Positions 26,817 to 36,295 of a stretch of 39,474 nt of DNA are shown here, piece after piece. How positions within the stretch are numbered: the first letter of the stretch is position 1; each line of letters opens with the position of its first letter. This DNA is from a phage. Position numbers and translations under genes: made by a program. Location of the stretch: the sequence record PZ618369.1, one strand, 5' to 3'. Below the pieces are notes generated by a model. It was not told the origin of the DNA and did no database searches. It worked only from the letters and a program-made list of their open reading frames with translations.

Positions 26817-27287
26817 ATGTATATTCGCAAGGCTACGGAACCAGATGTCCAATACTTTCTGTGGCATCTTTCAGCAGATGATGTTAATGAGTGCAAAGCA
26901 AACTATGGGTCAACAGTTGGTCTCTCTGAAAGACTGCTTAAGCACCTATCTCCGTCATCTGTGGTTTTAACGAACGGTGTAGGCGAACACTTCGCCTATG
27001 GTGGAAACCAAGGGGACAACGTATGGTTCTTGACTTCCGGTCTGGTCCACAAGCTGAGACCTAAAGAGAAGCGAGAGTTCATAAAGCGTATCTCTGAGTA
27101 CAGGGACTTAATGTTAGACCAATACGGGACCATCTGGAACTACGTGTGGTCAGGCAATAAGTCTCACATTAAATTCTTGAAGTTACTTGGGGCTAAGTTC
27201 CATGATGATTGGACTATCAGCCCGGTAACTGGTGAGCGTTTTCAATTATTCACTATCTCTAAGGGGGACGTATGTGTGAACCCGTAA
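26817..27287 (+). CDS. 13: internal virion protein A
   Basis: synteny and size (156 aa). Confidence 0.7.
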   Translation: MYIRKATEPDVQYFLWHLSADDVNECKANYGSTVGLSERLLKHLSPSSVVLTNGVGEHFAYGGNQGDNVWFLTSGLVHKLRPKEKREFIKRISEYRDLMLDQYGTIWNYVWSGNKSHIKFLKLLGAKFHDDWTISPVTGERFQLFTISKGDVCVNP

Positions 27288-27859
27288 GTATCGGCATGGG
27301 TATCATGGCTGTAGCCGGGGCCACTATGTCCGCATCCCAACAGGCCAAGGCCGAAGGTGCAGCAATTGACGCTCAGAACCGACAGGCTCAGGAAATGGTT
27401 AAGCAGATGAACTACTCTGACGCCAACCTGAAGATGCAGGAGCGCGACCTGAAGGAGCAGCAGATGGCTGAACTGACAGAGACCACGCTTAACGGTATCC
27501 GCAATCAGGGTATGGTCCGAGCTGCGGTGGCTGAGTCCGGTCTGGAAGGTAACTCTATGGACAGGATTGAACGTCAGGTCGAAGGAGATACAGTCAAGGA
27601 GCGAGCAGGGATTACCGAAAGTTACAACCGCGACTATGCGGCTATCTTCGGGAACCGTATAGCCAACATTGAGAACACCAAGTCTGCTATTCGTGGTCAA
27701 GGTAAAATCATCAAGACTAGCCCACTGGCTCATGCACTTAATGTTGCTAACGCCGGGATGCAGGGATACGCTGCTGGTAAGTCAATCTCTGGGGCATCAA
27801 GCTCTGGTGGTTCTGCACCGATTAGTGCTGCTAAAGGCACACCTACAGGTCATAGCTAA
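27272..27859 (+). CDS. 14: internal virion protein B
   Basis: MCEP...SMDRIERQVEGDTVKE...NRDYAAIFG resembles recalled T7 gp14 (MCWAA...SMDRIKRVTEGQ...RRDYQAIFA). Confidence 0.8.
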   Translation: MCEPVSIGMGIMAVAGATMSASQQAKAEGAAIDAQNRQAQEMVKQMNYSDANLKMQERDLKEQQMAELTETTLNGIRNQGMVRAAVAESGLEGNSMDRIERQVEGDTVKERAGITESYNRDYAAIFGNRIANIENTKSAIRGQGKIIKTSPLAHALNVANAGMQGYAAGKSISGASSSGGSAPISAAKGTPTGHS

Positions 27860-27870
27860 GAGGAGGACTA

Positions 27871-30153
27871 ATGGCTAGTAATATTGAATCAGCTCTGGCT
27901 AATCGGACTATGGGTCGTGGCAGAGCTCCGGGTAAAACTATCGCCGTCAACTATCAAGCAGCCAGCGTTCAGGCTCCGACTGGTGACTCCGGTCTGGCTC
28001 GTGCATTAACCAACTTCGTTGAGTCTGGGACTGGATTGTACAAGCAGTTCAAAGACGAGGAGAAGACACGGGCCGACGAGCGGTCTAACGAGATTATCCG
28101 TAAGCTGACACCTCAGCAAAGACGTGAGGCTATCCAGAACGGCACACTGCTGTATCAGGACGACCCTTACGCTATGGAAGCACTTCGAGTCAAGACTGGA
28201 CGTAACGCTGCCTTTGCGGTGGATGACGAGATTAACGTTAAGATTCAGAATGGTGAGTTCCGCACACGTCAGGAAATGGAAGAATATCGCCACCAGCGAC
28301 TTCAAGACGCAGCTAAGTCCTATGCTGAAGAGGCTGGTATTAACCCTACCGATGAGTTCTTCCAGCGAGGGTTCAACGATAACATCACAGACCGCAACAT
28401 CGCTATCTATGGGTCCTTCAATAAGTATTTCAGTAAGCAGTCTGAAGAGACAGCAATGTTGAATACTCGTATTGAGATGAACTCATTCCTGAACGATGGA
28501 GACCTGATGCGTTCACCTGAGTCAGGTAAGACCTTCATGGCCTACCTTCGTGATGGACTGACTACTGCTGCTATCCCTTCGGACCAGCGAGCACGGGAGG
28601 TAATTACCCAGACGGTCCGTGACGCAATCCAGAAGTCTGGTGGCTCAAACTTCCTACAGCAAGTACGAGGCGAGCGAATCACACTTAACGGTGTGGATGC
28701 TACAGTCGAAGAGATTGTAGGACCTGACGTCTTCAATGCTGCTATGGTAGAGGCTCAAGGCACTGAGTACAAACTGGTGGCTAAATATCAGGAAGACTTA
28801 GCGCTTGGAGTTCAGTCTGCTATTCTTCAGGATGACCCAACCATCGGTCTGGCCCAGATTCAGAAGCTCAAGGAGCAGAACAACCTGCTTCAACCGGGTG
28901 AAGAACTCACACCTCAGCGTCAGATGCTTATTAATGCCGAAGCCAGCCTACTGGAAGCGGTCAAGCGTAAGTCTGCTGAACAGGCAAAAGAGAACACTAA
29001 GTTAATCCAGACTCAGAACAAGCAACTGGTCATCGACCAAGTGTATCAGCGACGTCTGGCTGGGGACAACGTGTCAACCAACTATGAGGACCTTCCTGTC
29101 TCTGAGGCTACAGGAGAGTTCAAACGTTCAGACATGAACAACTATGCGTCTGCCAAGCTACAGCAGATTGACCAGATGGACATCCCTGAGGCAGCTAAGG
29201 ACGCTCAGAAGGTGGCATTGTTAAGAGCTGACACTAACAACGGTCCGTTCCGTAATGCCTTCCAGACGCTGACTCAGGACGCTGCTGGTGAGTGGCAAGC
29301 TGCTGTCATCCGTGGACAGTACGACCCAGACAAGATGCAACGCTTCGAGTCTCTTCGTCGTGCCTACACTCAGGACCCTTCAAGTTTCGCTGCTCTGTAT
29401 CCTGACCAAGCTCAGTTGTTCTCTACGTTCGACCAGATGGACAAGATGGGTCTGGACCCTCAGACGATGATTGAAGCTGATAAGCAAGCTGCAAGTCAAA
29501 GCCGTGAGATGCGCATGGAGTCAGACAAGGCGTGGCAGGAGTTGAAGAACGACTCCAAGAACACCCAGTTGTCTCGTCTCCCAACGTCTCTTGACTCAAG
29601 TGCTCGTAAGGTCTGGGACTCATGGTACTATCGTACAGGTAACGCTGACGCTGCAACTCAGCAGACTCAACGCTGGCTGAATGAAAATACCGTAACGTTC
29701 CAGTCTGAAGGCTCTGACGGTAAGTCCATCGGCATGGTGTCAAAGCACCAGCTTATGGTTGGGGATAACCCAGAGTCGTGGCAGGTTGGTCGAGACATTA
29801 TCGACACAGCTCGTCAGCAGCTCATTAAGGCCAACCCTTGGGTAGTGAACTCTCAGTTGTCAGTTGTTGAGCAGAACGGCTCTATCTTCCTCCAAGACGC
29901 TACAGGGACTATTCGTATTCGCTACGATAAAGAACTTGTAGGTAAACTCTACCGTGAACAACAGCAGAAGGCACAAGATGCCGCATACGCTCAGGCAGAA
30001 CGTGACGCTAACAAGCGAGCGCGTATCGTCGGGACTAAAGCTGCTGGTGACAAACGTCGAGCTGACCGAGAGGCCACCATCGAGAAGCGCGGAGGGATGT
30101 ACAATGACGTCTCATTGGAGGGTATCGCAAACGTACTAATCGGTAAGGAGTAA
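27871..30153 (+). CDS. 15: internal virion protein C
   Basis: synteny and size (760 aa vs 747 in T7). Confidence 0.8.
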   Translation: MASNIESALANRTMGRGRAPGKTIAVNYQAASVQAPTGDSGLARALTNFVESGTGLYKQFKDEEKTRADERSNEIIRKLTPQQRREAIQNGTLLYQDDPYAMEALRVKTGRNAAFAVDDEINVKIQNGEFRTRQEMEEYRHQRLQDAAKSYAEEAGINPTDEFFQRGFNDNITDRNIAIYGSFNKYFSKQSEETAMLNTRIEMNSFLNDGDLMRSPESGKTFMAYLRDGLTTAAIPSDQRAREVITQTVRDAIQKSGGSNFLQQVRGERITLNGVDATVEEIVGPDVFNAAMVEAQGTEYKLVAKYQEDLALGVQSAILQDDPTIGLAQIQKLKEQNNLLQPGEELTPQRQMLINAEASLLEAVKRKSAEQAKENTKLIQTQNKQLVIDQVYQRRLAGDNVSTNYEDLPVSEATGEFKRSDMNNYASAKLQQIDQMDIPEAAKDAQKVALLRADTNNGPFRNAFQTLTQDAAGEWQAAVIRGQYDPDKMQRFESLRRAYTQDPSSFAALYPDQAQLFSTFDQMDKMGLDPQTMIEADKQAASQSREMRMESDKAWQELKNDSKNTQLSRLPTSLDSSARKVWDSWYYRTGNADAATQQTQRWLNENTVTFQSEGSDGKSIGMVSKHQLMVGDNPESWQVGRDIIDTARQQLIKANPWVVNSQLSVVEQNGSIFLQDATGTIRIRYDKELVGKLYREQQQKAQDAAYAQAERDANKRARIVGTKAAGDKRRADREATIEKRGGMYNDVSLEGIANVLIGKE

Positions 30154-30157
30154 CATA

Positions 30158-33100
30158 ATGGCGACTCGTGGTATTCGCAATAACAATCCGGGTAACATCC
30201 GGGTAAGTAAGGACCAATGGGAAGGAATGACTGGGGATGATGGTGCATTCGTCACCTTTGATAGTCCAGAGTCTGGCGTCCGAGCTTTAGGTAAAAACCT
30301 GCTGTCCTACGGTCGCCAAGGTTATGACTCCATCGAGAAGATTATCAACAGATGGGCTCCTCCTAACGAGAACGACACTCAGGCTTATATTGACTCTGTG
30401 GTGGCTGCGACTGGTATTCCAGCTACCCAGAGTCTCGACCTCTCGAACCCGGACACCCTGTCTTCTCTGGCTCAAGCTATCAGCTTCCATGAGACAGGCT
30501 CCCGGTACAATCCTGAAGTATATCAGAAGGGAGTCGCACGAGCACTAAACGGTATCAGCCCAAAGACTCCACCAGTAAGCGCTAACGTATTTGACGCACT
30601 CACGGAAGGACTCAAGGCTAAACCTAAAGTAGCTCTGGGAGGGAACCTTCCGACCGCTGCTGGTCTGAACATTGAGGGTCAAGCACCTGAAGCTCCAAAC
30701 GAATCGTTCGGTGAGATGTTCTATAAGGCTACTGGCGAGACAATGCAGGAACGAGAGGACCGCTCTACGTGGTTCGGTTTCGGTGCTGCTACAGAAGCTG
30801 AAGTGAAGAACTCTATGGTCGGCGTGGCTATCCGCGCTGGTCAGACCGAGGACTCACTTGATGTAATTGGCGATGTGTTCAACCCGACCCGCTGGAACAA
30901 CCATAAGTGGACTCGTGATGAGCTGGACCAGATTCGTAACGCTGGGGTTCTGCCTCAGTATTACGGAGTCATTACTGGTGGCTCTCCTCAGAACCTGACC
31001 GAGCTGATTAACTTGGCGCTTGAGAACCAGAAGTTGGATCAAGAGAAGGCCAAGGCCGGGATTGGTGCTCAGTTAGCTGCTGGCGTGATTGGTGCTGGTG
31101 TAGACCCGCTGACCTACGTTCCTATCGCTGGACAGGTTGGTAAAGGTGGTAAGCTGGTCAACAAGATGTTCACCGTGGCTGCTCAATCTGGAGCGCTGGC
31201 TGGTGTGTCTGAGATGGCTCGTACCTCAGTGGCTGGCGGTGATGCTCATGTGGCTGAAGCTATCCTCGGAGGTGCTCTCTTCGGTGGCGGAATGACCGCT
31301 ATCGCTGACGGCTTAGGAAGAGCCTTAGGTCGCAACACTAACGAGTTCGCTGGCCCGGCTACACGTCTGGAAGCTCGTGAGACTGCTCGTAACGTTGATG
31401 GTCAGGACCTGTCTCGTCTCCCTATTCAGGAAGGTGAGCAGACCTTTAGTCATCAAGGCGTTAAGTTCGCTGACGTTCAGAATGAGCCGGGTAGTGTACG
31501 ACTGGAGGATGGTTCAATCCTGATTGGTGAGAACCCTCTGAACCCTAAGACACGTCAGGTCTTTGACGAAGTGATTGAGCCTGAACGTGCAGCCGCTGGT
31601 GTGAACCTTGGTGGGCTGACTGAGATTGGACTGAAGCTGCTTCGGTCCGAGAACCCTGAGATTCGCGGAGTCGCTGCTGACTTAGTGCGTTCACCGACTG
31701 GTATGCAGTCAGGAGCCTCAGGTAAAATTGGGACCACTGCGTCAGACGTGTTCGAGAGACTTCGTGCTGTGGACCATCGGTTCTACAACGACATCGACGA
31801 TGCTGTTACTGAGGCACTCAAGGACCCCTACTTCCAGACAGCATTCTGGCGAGACTCTGGCGCATTCCGTCAGGACATCTACCAGCGTGTGTCTATGGCT
31901 ATTGAAGATGGCAGTGGGAACCTGAAGGCTGAACTGACTCCGGGAGAACTGAAAGTCTATGGCCTGCTGAAGAATCAGTTTGACGCAAAGCGTGAGATGA
32001 TGGAGAACCCAGCTATGTTTGGTCGTCCAGACGCTAAGTCTATCTTCCCCGGCAGTCGCTTCAAGGGAACCTACGTCCCGCATGTGTATAGCAATCAGAT
32101 GAAGGAGCTGTACATCAAGGAGCTTGGAAGCCCAGAGGCACTACAGGAGGCCATCAAGAAGTCATGGTTGACCAGCTATGCGTCTCGACCTGAAGTCAAG
32201 AAACGTGTGGACGAGGCACTCTTAGAGGCTGACCCTACGTTGACTGCAGATGGACTTGCGGCTGCGGTCGATAAGTACGCTAACGATAAGGCTTACGGTA
32301 TCTCTCACACCGAGCAGTTCGAACGTTCATCCGTAATGGAAGAGAACATCAATGGTCTGGTGGGTCTGGAGAACAACAGCTTCCTTGAGGCTCGTAACCT
32401 GTTCGATAGCGACATGTCAATCGTCTTACCTAACGGTCAGACCTTCAGTGTCAACAATCTGCGTGAGTGGGACATGGATAAGATTGTCCCTGCTTATAAC
32501 CGTCGAGTTAATGGTGACATTGCTATCATGGCTGGTACAGGAAAGACTACGAAGGACATGAAGGACTTGGTTGAGACCTTGATGAACAAGGCTGGGGATG
32601 ACGGTAAGTTGAAAGGTGAAGTATCTACCTTACGTGACACCCTGAAGATTCTAACTGGTCGTGCTCGACGTGATGGCGCTGATGATGCGGCCTTCGCTAC
32701 CGTGATGCGCACGATGACAGACCTATCGTTCTTCGCTAAAAATGCCTACATGGGTGTGCAGAACTTAACGGAGATTGGTGGTATGCTGGCTCGTGGTAAC
32801 GTTCGTGCATTGCTACATGGAGTTCCTATGTTCCGTGACCTAGCCTTCCGTAACAAGAAGGTAGGGGCCTCAGAGATTAAGGACCTGCACAATGTTATCT
32901 TCGGTAAGGAACTGGATGACTCAATCCGTCCGTCTAAACAGGATGTCATCGACCGTCTGCGGTCTTACAGTGACCTAGGTCGTGGTGCAGCCACAGCTCT
33001 GGGGACTGCCAAGTATTACACTGGTGAACTTGCAGTACGCTCGCCGTTCACTAAAGTCCTCAACGGTACGACAAACTACCTGTTAGATGCTGGACGTCAA

Positions 33101-34045
33101 GGCTTCCTGTCTGACATCGTGGAGCATAGTCTGACTGGCAGTAAGCGTCGGTTCGATGACCGCTGGCTGAAGACCGCTGGTATCTCTGACGAGCAGTGGA
33201 AGGGCATTAAGTCCCTAATCCGTGAGTCAGTGACTCGTGGTCCAGACGGGAAGTACACCATCAAGGATAAGAAGGCGTTCAGTCAGGACCCAAGGGCTAT
33301 GGACTTATGGCGTATGGGTGACACCATCGCTGATGAAACGTTACTCCGGCCCCACAAGCTGTCTAACATGGACGCCAAGGCTTATGGTCCTCTCGCTAAG
33401 ACTGTCCTTCAGTTTAAGAACTTCGTCATCAAGTCCATAAACGGTAGAACCATGCGTACCTTCTATAACGCCACGAAGAACAACCGAGCGATTGACGCTG
33501 CACTATCGACCGTGATGTCTATGGGTCTGGCTGGTATCTACTACATGGCTCAGGCGCACGTCAAGGCTTATGCTATGCAGGATGGTCGAGACCGTGACTA
33601 CCTTAAGCAAGCTCTGGACCCGACGATGATTGGTTATGCGGCTCTGTCTCGTAGTTCACATCTGGGTGGCCCACTCGGGGTAGCTAACATTCTGGGTGGC
33701 ATCGCTGGGTATGAGGACACCAAGATGCTCCGTTCGTCTATCCTACCTCGTTCGCCTACAGAGAAGCCTGAACGTGCCATCTCGTATGGTGCAGCTACAA
33801 GTGGCCCTGTGATGAATGTTGTTGGTAACTTCTTGGAGCAGGTTCCAGCTTTTGGATATGCTGCTAACGTTGGTGCTTCGGCTTACAACTTGGCTGGCTA
33901 CCTCAAGGCTGATACTCGGGTAAACGAGAGAGACTACATGACCGGGATGTATAACACCTTCCGTGAACTGGTTCCGAACGACCCGATTACTCAGAAGTTG
34001 CTACTGGGAACGTTTGAGGAGCAAGGTATCCACATCAAGGACTAA
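30158..34045 (+). CDS. 16: internal virion protein D (ejection protein), 1295 aa, with a non-T7-type N-terminal domain
   Basis: from about residue 200 onward collinear with recalled T7 gp16 (STWFGFGAATEAE, VLPQYYGVITGGSPQNL, RLEARETARN, SPTGMQSGASGK, YGISHTEQF, NSFLEARNLFDSD, LVPNDPITQKLL); first ~190 aa not recognisable as the T7 lytic transglycosylase domain. Confidence 0.92.
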   Translation: MATRGIRNNNPGNIRVSKDQWEGMTGDDGAFVTFDSPESGVRALGKNLLSYGRQGYDSIEKIINRWAPPNENDTQAYIDSVVAATGIPATQSLDLSNPDTLSSLAQAISFHETGSRYNPEVYQKGVARALNGISPKTPPVSANVFDALTEGLKAKPKVALGGNLPTAAGLNIEGQAPEAPNESFGEMFYKATGETMQEREDRSTWFGFGAATEAEVKNSMVGVAIRAGQTEDSLDVIGDVFNPTRWNNHKWTRDELDQIRNAGVLPQYYGVITGGSPQNLTELINLALENQKLDQEKAKAGIGAQLAAGVIGAGVDPLTYVPIAGQVGKGGKLVNKMFTVAAQSGALAGVSEMARTSVAGGDAHVAEAILGGALFGGGMTAIADGLGRALGRNTNEFAGPATRLEARETARNVDGQDLSRLPIQEGEQTFSHQGVKFADVQNEPGSVRLEDGSILIGENPLNPKTRQVFDEVIEPERAAAGVNLGGLTEIGLKLLRSENPEIRGVAADLVRSPTGMQSGASGKIGTTASDVFERLRAVDHRFYNDIDDAVTEALKDPYFQTAFWRDSGAFRQDIYQRVSMAIEDGSGNLKAELTPGELKVYGLLKNQFDAKREMMENPAMFGRPDAKSIFPGSRFKGTYVPHVYSNQMKELYIKELGSPEALQEAIKKSWLTSYASRPEVKKRVDEALLEADPTLTADGLAAAVDKYANDKAYGISHTEQFERSSVMEENINGLVGLENNSFLEARNLFDSDMSIVLPNGQTFSVNNLREWDMDKIVPAYNRRVNGDIAIMAGTGKTTKDMKDLVETLMNKAGDDGKLKGEVSTLRDTLKILTGRARRDGADDAAFATVMRTMTDLSFFAKNAYMGVQNLTEIGGMLARGNVRALLHGVPMFRDLAFRNKKVGASEIKDLHNVIFGKELDDSIRPSKQDVIDRLRSYSDLGRGAATALGTAKYYTGELAVRSPFTKVLNGTTNYLLDAGRQGFLSDIVEHSLTGSKRRFDDRWLKTAGISDEQWKGIKSLIRESVTRGPDGKYTIKDKKAFSQDPRAMDLWRMGDTIADETLLRPHKLSNMDAKAYGPLAKTVLQFKNFVIKSINGRTMRTFYNATKNNRAIDAALSTVMSMGLAGIYYMAQAHVKAYAMQDGRDRDYLKQALDPTMIGYAALSRSSHLGGPLGVANILGGIAGYEDTKMLRSSILPRSPTEKPERAISYGAATSGPVMNVVGNFLEQVPAFGYAANVGASAYNLAGYLKADTRVNERDYMTGMYNTFRELVPNDPITQKLLLGTFEEQGIHIKD

Positions 34046-34108: not shown

Positions 34109-36295
34109 ATGTCCACGATTACACAATTCCCTGCAGGAAACACTCAGTACAGGATTGAGTTCGACTACCTATCCAGAACGTTTGTTGTTGTTACGCTGGT
34201 GAATAGCTCTAACCCTACCCTGAACCGTGTACTGGAAGTTGGTCGAGATTACCGATTCCTTAATCCAACGATGATTGAGATGTTGGTTGACCAATCAGGT
34301 TTCGACATCGTTCGTATTCACCGTCAGACTGGAACTGACTTAGTGGTAGACTTCAGAAATGGCTCAGTGTTGACAGCCAGTGACCTGACCAATGCAGAGC
34401 TTCAGGCTATCCATATTGCAGAAGAGGGCAGAGACCAAACGGTTGACTTAGCGAAGGAATATGCTGATGCTGCTGGTACCTCTGCCGGCAACGCTAAGGA
34501 TAGCGAGGACGAAGCACGACGAATCGCTGAGGATATCAAGGCATCTGGTCGAATTGGCTATATTACCCGTCGCTCCTTCGAGAAAGGCTTCAACGTTATA
34601 ACATGGAACGAGGTACTGCTATGGGAAGAGGATGGTGAGTATTACCGTTGGGATGGTACGCTTCCAAAGAACGTTCCTGCTGGTTCAACTCCTGAAACTT
34701 CCGGTGGGATTGGGGTAGGTGCGTGGGTTCTCGTAGGCGATGCTTCACTTCGTATCGCACTAGCTTCTGAAGTAGGGGCATCAATGGTGTCCCGTAACGG
34801 CTCACCCCTAGGCAGAATCATTCGTGCATCACTCTTCGAATACCTTACCGAATCAGATCAGCGAGCATTACTTACTACTTCTGGAGCAGTAGTTGCAGCG
34901 GATTATGCGTTAAAAGCAGCTATAGCTGCTGGAGTTATGGTCCTTGATATACCACGGAACCTAGGGATTATTGAACTTGGTAGAGATCCAGCGACGCTTC
35001 CATTGGGGTTCTCGCTTATAGGATGGGGCTGCCGTCGACCTTATACTGTATCAGATGACAGTAGCTTCCTTAATTGCGGGGTAGTTATCCGCGTAGCAGC
35101 TGGGGCAAGTTTTCCTTTTTATTCAACTGGTCGTCATGTGTTCCGGGATATTGTTTTTGACGGGCGGGATAAAACAACGTATCTTTTTTATTCCACAGAT
35201 AGGTATGCTGAGTTCAACGGTACTCGACTAGAGGGGTGCGGAATTTACCGTTTTGCTATTGGTATTGGTTGGAATAAGGGAGGATCAGCAAGATACATCA
35301 CAACAGTGAAAGCACACTTTTGTTCCCTATCTGGAAATGGGGACGCAGTTAAAAATTTAATAGACTCTATGATGATTGGTTGCACAATCAATGCCAATGA
35401 CCGAGGCGTAGCTCTTGTCGGCGGGGCAAATAGTAACTTTTTCGGAGGATGCCGGAACGAATGGAACGCTGGTGATAACTGGTATGCGCATGAATCAATA
35501 GAAAACCAGATTTCAGGTGAACTGTGCGACAGGGCTGGGCGAGGCGGGGTAGTTGCTGGCAAGGATTCGTCATGGATTGTAACCGGAGTTGTCGTCGCTC
35601 GCAGTGGTGCTAATCAACCAATGAATGATAACTACTCAGCAAACTTTGTTATTATTGATAACGGTAAAATCGTAATCTCTGGGGTGAGAACCAGAAACGG
35701 AGCTAACGAGTGGGGTCAGGGTGGGACAAATTCTCCATCGTTTAACGTATCGGTTCTCGGTTCTGGTAATGGGACACTCCTGGTATCTGGAAGTGATATG
35801 ACCGGTTTTGTTACTTCGGTAATTAACCAGAAGGCTCCTACATTAAATAAAGCTATAACCGGAAATCTCGGTATGGATGATGATGTAAATGTTGGAATGT
35901 CTCAGGTTATTAAAGGAAGACGGATTATTGGTTCACAGTCATCGGGTAGATTGCAAGACACTGTGGGAGCAACGTTATCATTCACTAAGCCCAATATTGC
36001 GCAAGATTTATATGCTACATACGTCACCAGAGCCATATTGATTGAGTGTAGAATTGGCAATACTGCACAAGGTGATTATATAAAAATACCTATAGGGGTA
36101 AGGCACGAAAACAATTTCTATCTTGATGTCATTACCAGTGGAATTGTCGCAAGCTCTGGAAGGATTGGTCTTTCAGGAACTGGGGTTACTGTTAGCTTAT
36201 CTATTGATAGTTCAACAGGTGACATCTCAGTTACGTTAACTAGCGTTGATGGGTTGGTGAGAGATGTTAATGTCTCTTTACTGCCATCAATTTAA
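34109..36295 (+). CDS. 17: tail fibre/tailspike: T7 gp17-like N-terminal adaptor fused to a beta-helix-like C-terminal domain (putative depolymerase)
   Basis: N-terminal ~150 aa resemble recalled T7 gp17 ([37 protein letters not shown]); the remainder is Gly/Asn/Ser/Val-rich with repetitive short strands and has visibly lower GC. Confidence 0.88.

Follow-up and report, generated by a model that had tools for sequence, protein, structure and literature searches.

In phage T7, residues 1-156 of the internal virion protein gp16 form a transglycosylase domain, and residues 157-228 form a gp15-binding stretch, the extended 'molecular tape' (PMC8954989). In standard conditions T7 can do without the transglycosylase activity, which is required only when the wall is highly cross-linked, according to the part of PMC8954989 that cites Moak & Molineux. 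Podophage ejection proteins are known to exchange muralytic modules (PMC8954989, PMC5380687). Another muralytic family is known from the endolysin of Hafnia phage Enc34, in which Glu131 is catalytic and Tyr95 and Trp79 are conserved active-site aromatics; cells of E. coli, P. aeruginosa and Hafnia are lysed by the purified catalytic domain once their outer membrane has been permeabilised (PMC8943055). This family (CDD PHA02564, 'V virion protein') has been argued to be a highly diverged, helix-permuted relative of the lysozyme-fold enzymes of GH73/GH23 (PMC8943055). For the related endolysin M4Lys, liquid chromatography-mass spectrometry (LC-MS) shows loss of N-acetylglucosamine (GlcNAc) from muropeptides, thus an N-acetylglucosaminidase activity, and endopeptidase activity is possible (PMC7143992). 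Here, the gp16 gene of a phage genome of 39,474 nucleotides was analysed (sequence record PZ618369.1; the window denotes this whole stretch). The first 130 or so residues of its product, called the N-domain below, were found to belong to the Enc34-type family and occupy the place of the T7 transglycosylase domain.

The N-terminal module of gp16 differs from that of T7

The gp16 open reading frame (ORF) lies at 30158..34045 on the plus strand, is read in one frame and encodes 1295 amino acids (aa), starting MATRGIRNNNPGNIRVSKDQWEG. This start is exactly the N-terminal peptide quoted in the original prediction, whose interval, 30158-30760, covers gp16 codons 1-201. The gene was divided as follows.

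30158..30547, plus strand: gp16 residues 1-130, predicted Enc34/PHA02564-type peptidoglycan glycosidase domain, the swapped module
30548..30775, plus strand: gp16 linker, residues ~131-206, weakly conserved; putative counterpart of the T7 'molecular tape' (T7 157-228), from the BLASTP alignment of query 125-206 with T7 152-228
30776..34045, plus strand: gp16 body, residues ~207-1295, collinear with T7 gp16 (internal virion protein D)

BLASTP aligned gp16 residues 125-1295 with T7 gp16 residues 152-1315 (53% identity over 1180 aligned positions), and phmmer against PDB chains gave the same boundary of collinearity. A BLASTP comparison of residues 1-201 with T7 residues 1-200 returned nothing significant, the best E-value being 1.4. 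Two short stretches were considered as residual homology, namely the BLAST stretch q104-125 / T7 102-126 (E 1.4) and the best hhalign stretch, q35-59 / T7 77-102. Neither was significant. In a forced global pairwise alignment, identity to T7 was 33% for residues 125-200 and 55% for residues 201-1295; the 23% obtained for residues 1-124 is noise. A conserved GI[ST]PK motif marks the point, about residue 125-130, from which the protein is again collinear with T7; the motif is kept in a multi-phage alignment together with a second linker motif, STWFGFG. Given the domain limits of T7 gp16 (1-156 and 157-228), the swap therefore sits exactly at a structural domain boundary. By these alignments the swapped module is about 125-130 residues long, not 200. 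Thus the original prediction of a body collinear with T7 is borne out, but collinearity begins at about residue 125-130 and not at about 200.

The N-domain belongs to the Enc34 endolysin family

In a PHROGs search with gp16, its first ~170 residues matched phrog_873 (E 4e-55), along with tape-measure, 'tail injection transglycosylase' and endolysin families. In phmmer, residues 3-124 aligned with residues 7-141 of the Enc34 endolysin chain 7Q47_A (E 4.3e-14), and tblastn linked the N-domain to endolysins of Chi-like and Enc34-like phages (E about 5e-12). An AlphaFold2 model of residues 1-130, built with 27 homologs, had five helices and a mean predicted local distance difference test score of 85.4; in this model the N-domain takes the all-helical fold of the Enc34 catalytic domain. 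The family alignment comprised 27 homologous sequences of the N-domain. Numbering of the Enc34 chain in the HMMER alignment equals the published numbering plus 1. Three codons for active-site positions were assigned from the alignment.

30353..30355, plus strand: codon W66, corresponding to Enc34 Trp79, the substrate-positioning aromatic (PMC8943055)
30386..30388, plus strand: codon Y77, corresponding to Enc34 Tyr95; invariant in 27 sequences
30491..30493, plus strand: codon E112 (FHETGS), corresponding to the catalytic Glu131 of Enc34 (RHENGS; PMC8943055); invariant in 27 sequences

Position 66 is W or Y throughout the alignment. All of the invariant family positions (23/23) are present in the window gp16, including the RGIRNNNPGNIR motif at the extreme N-terminus. 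The original prediction had implied an unrecognised N-terminus; instead, it belongs to a known peptidoglycan-glycosidase family with a solved structure (Enc34 endolysin, PDB 7Q47).

These data also bear on the possibility that the N-domain is catalytically inactive and forms a 'wing' of the periplasmic tunnel that is structural or binds peptidoglycan, or else acts as a leader for packaging or ejection. Selection on catalysis could be weak, since the T7 activity is dispensable in standard conditions (PMC8954989). Against this stand the 23 retained positions, E112 and Y77 among them, the 99% conservation of the N-domain between this phage and K1F, and its occurrence in Minipunavirus at 45-48% identity with an intact catalytic motif (QENG). 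This pattern points to purifying selection on the active site, and we regard an inactive domain as quite improbable.

Comparison with SLT lytic transglycosylases

The original prediction held that the gp16 N-terminus is unlike the T7 transglycosylase domain, and BLASTP, Pfam SLT, NCBIfam and hhalign all agree with this. As a positive control, the Pfam SLT model (PF01464) matched residues 15-127 of T7 gp16 with an E-value of 1.7e-31. With the window protein, or with its first 201 residues, the same model gave no match even at E<=1. Four NCBIfam transglycosylase models match T7 gp16 and none matches the window gp16. When the N-domain family was compared with the N-domains of seven SLT-type gp16 proteins by hhalign, the probability was 0.4%. 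Residues E37, Q55 and Y108-N109-x-G111 are invariant in these seven proteins; an alignable counterpart of the SLT motifs (the N-proximal E37 in ES, GLMQ and AYNxG) is missing in the window gp16. Because these profile and motif tests failed, the N-domain is placed outside the SLT family. By these comparisons, the N-terminal module is a domain other than the T7 SLT lytic transglycosylase, and the replacement is a genuine module swap. The original prediction had also raised the case of a standard transglycosylase domain with a conserved catalytic Glu: the domain is not of the SLT type, but a conserved Glu is present, E112.

A lytic transglycosylase like that of T7, diverged past recognition, was weighed as the source of these differences. 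Several GenBank records name the protein 'peptidoglycan lytic exotransglycosylase' or 'peptidoglycan transglycosylase', and a single catalytic carboxylate was identified in the N-domain, as in lytic transglycosylases. The Enc34 authors propose distant common ancestry with GH23, which includes the lytic transglycosylases, with an equivalent Glu/Tyr/aromatic triad (PMC8943055). In addition to the failed SLT profile, hhalign and motif comparisons, the order of the helices is permuted, so that the catalytic Glu is found in the final core helix (E112) and not in the first (E37). Furthermore, the Enc34 authors name a GH73 glucosaminidase as the nearest relative in structure (PMC8943055), and M4Lys releases GlcNAc (PMC7143992). 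A diverged transglycosylase is therefore unlikely.

Predicted role during DNA ejection

Taken with these results, residues 1 to ~130 of gp16 are best explained as a catalytically competent glycosidase of the Enc34-endolysin/PHA02564 family that replaces the SLT domain of T7, cuts the wall at the time of ejection and is probably an N-acetylglucosaminidase. We give this reading a probability of roughly 0.8. The analysis shows the homology and fold of the N-domain, the retention of its catalytic residues, the limit of the swapped module and its spread among taxa; its enzymatic activity, bond specificity and role in ejection are what we infer. The domain would be all-helical and related, through a permutation, to the lysozyme alpha-lobe; its only catalytic glutamate would be E112, with Y77 and W66 as helpers, and the domain would fill the slot that the SLT lytic transglycosylase with its catalytic E37 holds in T7 gp16. 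By analogy with T7, gp14, gp15 and gp16 would leave the capsid through the portal and tail after adsorption (PMC8954989). The gp16 N-domain would then reach the periplasm and open a gap in the wall by local cutting of glycan strands. With the wall no longer blocking it, a trans-periplasmic tunnel could be built by gp15 and the 'tape' (~131-206), to which a gp15-binding role is assigned from T7 (PMC8954989). Finally, the conserved body of gp16 would insert into the inner membrane, as in T7.

The bond cut is probably the GlcNAc-beta-1,4-MurNAc bond (MurNAc, N-acetylmuramic acid), cleaved hydrolytically as by an N-acetylglucosaminidase. A lytic transglycosylase of the T7 type would instead cut MurNAc-GlcNAc non-hydrolytically and form 1,6-anhydro-MurNAc. 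We hold hydrolytic GlcNAc-MurNAc cleavage with moderate confidence, from relatives at about 32-34% identity. The original prediction implied that the swap changes how the wall is crossed. The swap probably leaves the task, local cutting of the wall while DNA is ejected, as it is in T7, and only the bond chemistry probably differs. Since the T7 activity is needed only with a highly cross-linked wall, the N-domain is probably conditionally important here, too.

A location of gp16 in the virion is supported indirectly. Mass spectrometry of virions from two K1F-like Citrobacter phages, SH3 and SH4, identified a 141-kDa 'internal virion protein D' (PMC4925675). In PDB entry 9VVP, the chains Gp28 and Gp29 are near-identical to the window gp15 and gp16; a literature search found no paper for this entry.

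Several points weigh against the assignment to an active Enc34-type glycosidase. Pfam-A and NCBIfam have no model for the N-domain, neither with whole gp16 nor with its first 201 residues nor with the 27 family members. Accordingly, the Pfam check that the original prediction had proposed for residues 1-200, run with residues 1-201, matched no domain. The sole hint from these databases was GH73 Glucosaminidase (E 0.0096) in a single family member, so PHROGs, one crystal structure and CDD, as cited in the papers, are the basis of the family assignment. Identity of the N-domain is only 32% to Enc34 and ~34% to the Chi-like (M4Lys-type) endolysins, and the bond specificity is uncertain because it is transferred across this distance. 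The M4Lys paper itself is inconsistent, with glucosaminidase plus endopeptidase in the text and muramidase in one figure legend (PMC7143992). Activity in the family is known only from two endolysins, Enc34 (turbidity; PMC8943055) and M4Lys (LC-MS; PMC7143992). Foldseek with the N-domain did not return 9VVP among its entries.

Distribution and history of the domain

In a tblastn search with residues 1-125, the domain was found in 754 phage records. About 223 of them matched at >=60% identity, all of these being gp16 of Kayfunavirus-like phages. The other matches were to structural or head proteins of phiV10- and SPC32H-like Salmonella and Escherichia phages, to D3112- and MP29-like Pseudomonas phages, to endolysins of phages such as CAjan, SE1 (Nonagvirus), Siskin and FSL SP-030, and to phage genomes of 10-16 kb from Vibrio and Gluconobacter. 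A HMMER scan of 1.84 billion cluster representatives identified 17,743 proteins with the Enc34-type domain at E<=0.001. These include stand-alone proteins of 130-230 aa and larger ones, up to ~1400 aa, in which it is an N-terminal, internal or C-terminal module, many long proteins having it inside or at the C-terminus; one protein of 762 aa has four stretches that match the domain. Judged by these searches, the Enc34-type domain is a common, promiscuous phage lysin module.

The T7 SLT domain was found in 1223 records, including Teseptimavirus, Przondovirus, Berlinvirus, Elunavirus, Ghunavirus and Wuhanvirus. Salmonella phage SWJM-03, for example, is a Berlinvirus with an SLT-type gp16. Within Studiervirinae, Minipunavirus is the second genus with an Enc34-type gp16 N-domain, and its N-domains are the closest relatives of those of Kayfunavirus. 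All Minipunavirus phages have this domain and not SLT (for instance Lilpapawes, L003:4456-8385). In a neighbour-joining tree of the gp16 body from 14 phages, Kayfunavirus and Minipunavirus were nested among SLT-bearing lineages; the SLT-bearing other members and outgroups were Ghunavirus, Wuhanvirus and Melnykvirinae. Replacement of SLT is therefore the parsimonious reading. The tree suggests that SLT was replaced by the Enc34-type domain in one or two events, the internal branches being too short to tell these apart. The swap is an ordinary exchange of modules and is common to all Kayfunavirus phages.

A hydrolase that cuts the GlcNAc-MurNAc bond does not require a free C6-OH of MurNAc. Such a hydrolase could therefore cut through a wall on which lytic transglycosylases and lysozymes fail. 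Morganella and Providencia, the hosts of Minipunavirus, O-acetylate their peptidoglycan, which blocks lytic transglycosylases, and host O-acetylation is a possible selective reason for the swap in Minipunavirus. Kayfunavirus hosts are mostly without O-acetylation of peptidoglycan. Overall, we consider it rather unlikely that the exchange of SLT for the Enc34-type domain was adaptive rather than neutral, for example by permitting entry through transglycosylase-resistant peptidoglycan. If it were, the dependence of DNA entry on the state of the wall (temperature, stationary phase) would differ from that of T7. On this reading, the N-domain might in addition have the dual glycosidase/endopeptidase activity suggested for M4Lys.

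Genomic context and other mosaic sites

Around gp16, the following features were found on the plus strand.

26817..27287, plus strand: gp13 homolog ORF
27272..27859, plus strand: gp14 homolog, 195 aa, predicted outer-membrane component of the ejectosome (phrog_805, E 2e-65)
27871..30153, plus strand: gp15 homolog, 760 aa, predicted periplasmic-tunnel partner of gp16 (phrog_1339, E 0)
30145..30150, plus strand: AAGGAG ribosome-binding site, 7 nucleotides (nt) before the gp16 ATG, read from the sequence
34109..36295, plus strand: gp17 tail fibre/spike, 728 aa

The order gp13-gp14-gp15-gp16-gp17 is the same as in T7 and K1F. The end of the gp13 ORF overlaps the start of gp14 by 16 nt, which is ordinary compact packing of phage genes. 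The gp15 homolog matched the PDB chains 9vvp_I (Gp28, full length) and 7eyb_A (T7 gp15, E 6e-213). For gp16, the PDB matches were the T7 gp16 chains 7eyb/7k5c/6yt5 at E 0 and the near-identical 9vvp_L (Gp29); its PHROGs match over the whole length was phrog_342, 'internal virion protein with endolysin domain' (E 0). At the DNA level, gp16 is 98.3% identical to gp16 of Klebsiella phage SEA1f. Of the 240 phage records matched in a nucleotide search with the gene, 220 align over >=80% of its length; Kayfunavirus phages make up most of the records, with Escherichia, Salmonella, Enterobacter and relatives as hosts. The first 25 kb of the window showed about 91-95% identity to Kayfunavirus genomes. 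Because of the T7-homologous body, the conserved gene order and the Kayfunavirus DNA matches, the ORF at 30158..34045 is identified as gp16, internal virion protein D. On these alignments, the window is a whole genome of a Kayfunavirus (K1F-like, T7 supergroup). Scans for promoters and terminators around gp16 gave nothing above shuffle expectation.

This context also decides whether the N-terminal difference could be an artefact, such as a wrong start codon, a frameshift or an upstream gene fused by the ORF caller. Nothing specific speaks for it beyond the generic caveat that applies to findings from raw sequence. The gene is a single frame of 1295 codons that follows directly on the gp15 stop codon (TAA at 30151-30153), and a good ribosome-binding site lies 7 nt ahead of it. 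Its length and N-terminus match those of K1F gp16 and of PDB chain 9vvp_L, and the start motif M..RGIRNNNPGNIR also occurs in stand-alone family members. The intact frame, the ribosome-binding site and the agreement with K1F and 9vvp_L refute an artefact, to which we assign next to no probability.

In two other phages, Kosakonia phage Kc166A (L004:4456-8850) and Shigella phage A7 (L009:4501-9435), gp16 carries a shared coiled-coil-like insertion of ~150-300 aa that contains MKLDDAATRASDKVAEL.DVLTNAEKRVADRE.KLQNSKDRLASHEAKLKELEE. The insertion point corresponds to residue 690 of the window gp16 (~window 32227), and the insertion is absent from the window, K1F and T7. That a Kayfunavirus and a Berlinvirus have the same insert suggests that gp16 contains a second site at which mosaic exchange occurs.

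Another difference from the type species was seen in gp17. Residues 1-226 match the tail spike PDB 9vvr_A (E 2e-131) and the N-terminal adaptor of T7 gp17, and residues 240-612 match 7xy1_A, 'phage type I tail fiber' (E 1.5e-61). K1F gp17 is an endosialidase of 1064 aa, whereas the window gp17 has 728 aa and another C-terminal domain. The receptor-binding module has therefore been exchanged relative to the type species.

Annotation of gp16

Near-identical gp16 genes are annotated as 'peptidoglycan lytic exotransglycosylase', 'endo-type membrane-bound chitopentaose' or 'hypothetical protein'. The transglycosylase names appear to have been transferred from T7 and are unsupported by the family of the N-domain. 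As many GenBank records mislabel gp16, a small correction of the annotation is due. For Kayfunavirus and Minipunavirus, the lytic transglycosylase label would be wrong; the virion-associated lysin would be of the Enc34/PHA02564 family, with E112 as the residue to mutate. The domain itself is already known: its sequence has been public since K1F, RefSeq uses an 'endolysin domain' name, the family has a solved structure and assay data, and the PDB includes a near-identical protein. A literature search found no paper that explicitly states the swap of the gp16 N-domain between T7 and K1F; the K1F genome paper (J Bacteriol 2005) was not covered by this search. Because K1F serves in engineering and diagnostics, naming its wall-cutting domain correctly would be of some practical use. 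None of these findings would be unexpected to specialists.

Comparison with known systems

The closest system is K1F, type species of Kayfunavirus. Its gp16 (YP_338126, NC_007456) has 1295 aa and the same genomic position, and RefSeq names it 'internal virion protein with endolysin domain'. Over residues 1-201, 198/201 positions are identical (99%), and the body is 97% identical; thus there is essentially no difference in gp16.

T7 gp16 (NP_042004; PDB 7EYB, 7K5C, 6YT5) has the same architecture as the window protein, with an N-terminal muralytic module of ~125-155 residues, a linker and a large conserved body. The modules differ, that of T7 being a Pfam SLT/GH23 lytic transglycosylase with E37 (PMC8954989) and that of the window being of the Enc34 type with E112. 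Between the two N-domains, BLASTP detected no sequence similarity and hhalign no profile similarity. T7 and K1F are a natural pair for asking if the chemistry of wall cleavage matters to DNA entry.

The Hafnia phage Enc34 ORF39 endolysin (PDB 7Q47) and M4Lys of Salmonella phage BSPM4 share the family and fold of the window N-domain, the catalytic Glu/Tyr/Trp and an N-terminal RGIRNNNPGNI motif. At 32% identity to the window N-domain, these endolysins act late, have a C-terminal transmembrane domain and lie in lysis cassettes. In contrast, the window copy is the N-terminus of a virion ejection protein of 1295 aa, and by analogy it would act from outside at the start of infection.

In Minipunavirus (Morganella MmP1, MP2, Lilpapawes; Providencia PSTRCR_128), gp16 has an Enc34-type N-domain instead of SLT, like the window. 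These phages belong to a different genus with different hosts; their N-domains are 45-48% identical to that of the window and the body is 51% identical. In other subfamilies, other families of lysins are found on ejection proteins, as in SP6 gp36 and the K1-5 gp38 lysozyme (PMC5380687, PMC8954989). The window gp16 would add another clean case of muralytic-module exchange at a structural domain boundary of a podophage ejection protein.

Burkholderia phage Bp-AMP3 (Okabevirinae) was seen to have an Enc34-type N-terminus on its gp16 analog as well. This protein of >1600 aa in the gp16 position (L005:4423-9297) is annotated 'putative transglycosylase' and starts IRQNNPGNIR, with 44% identity, and its body is only 18% identical to that of the window. 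In Bp-AMP3, the same lysin module may have been fused to an ejection protein independently.

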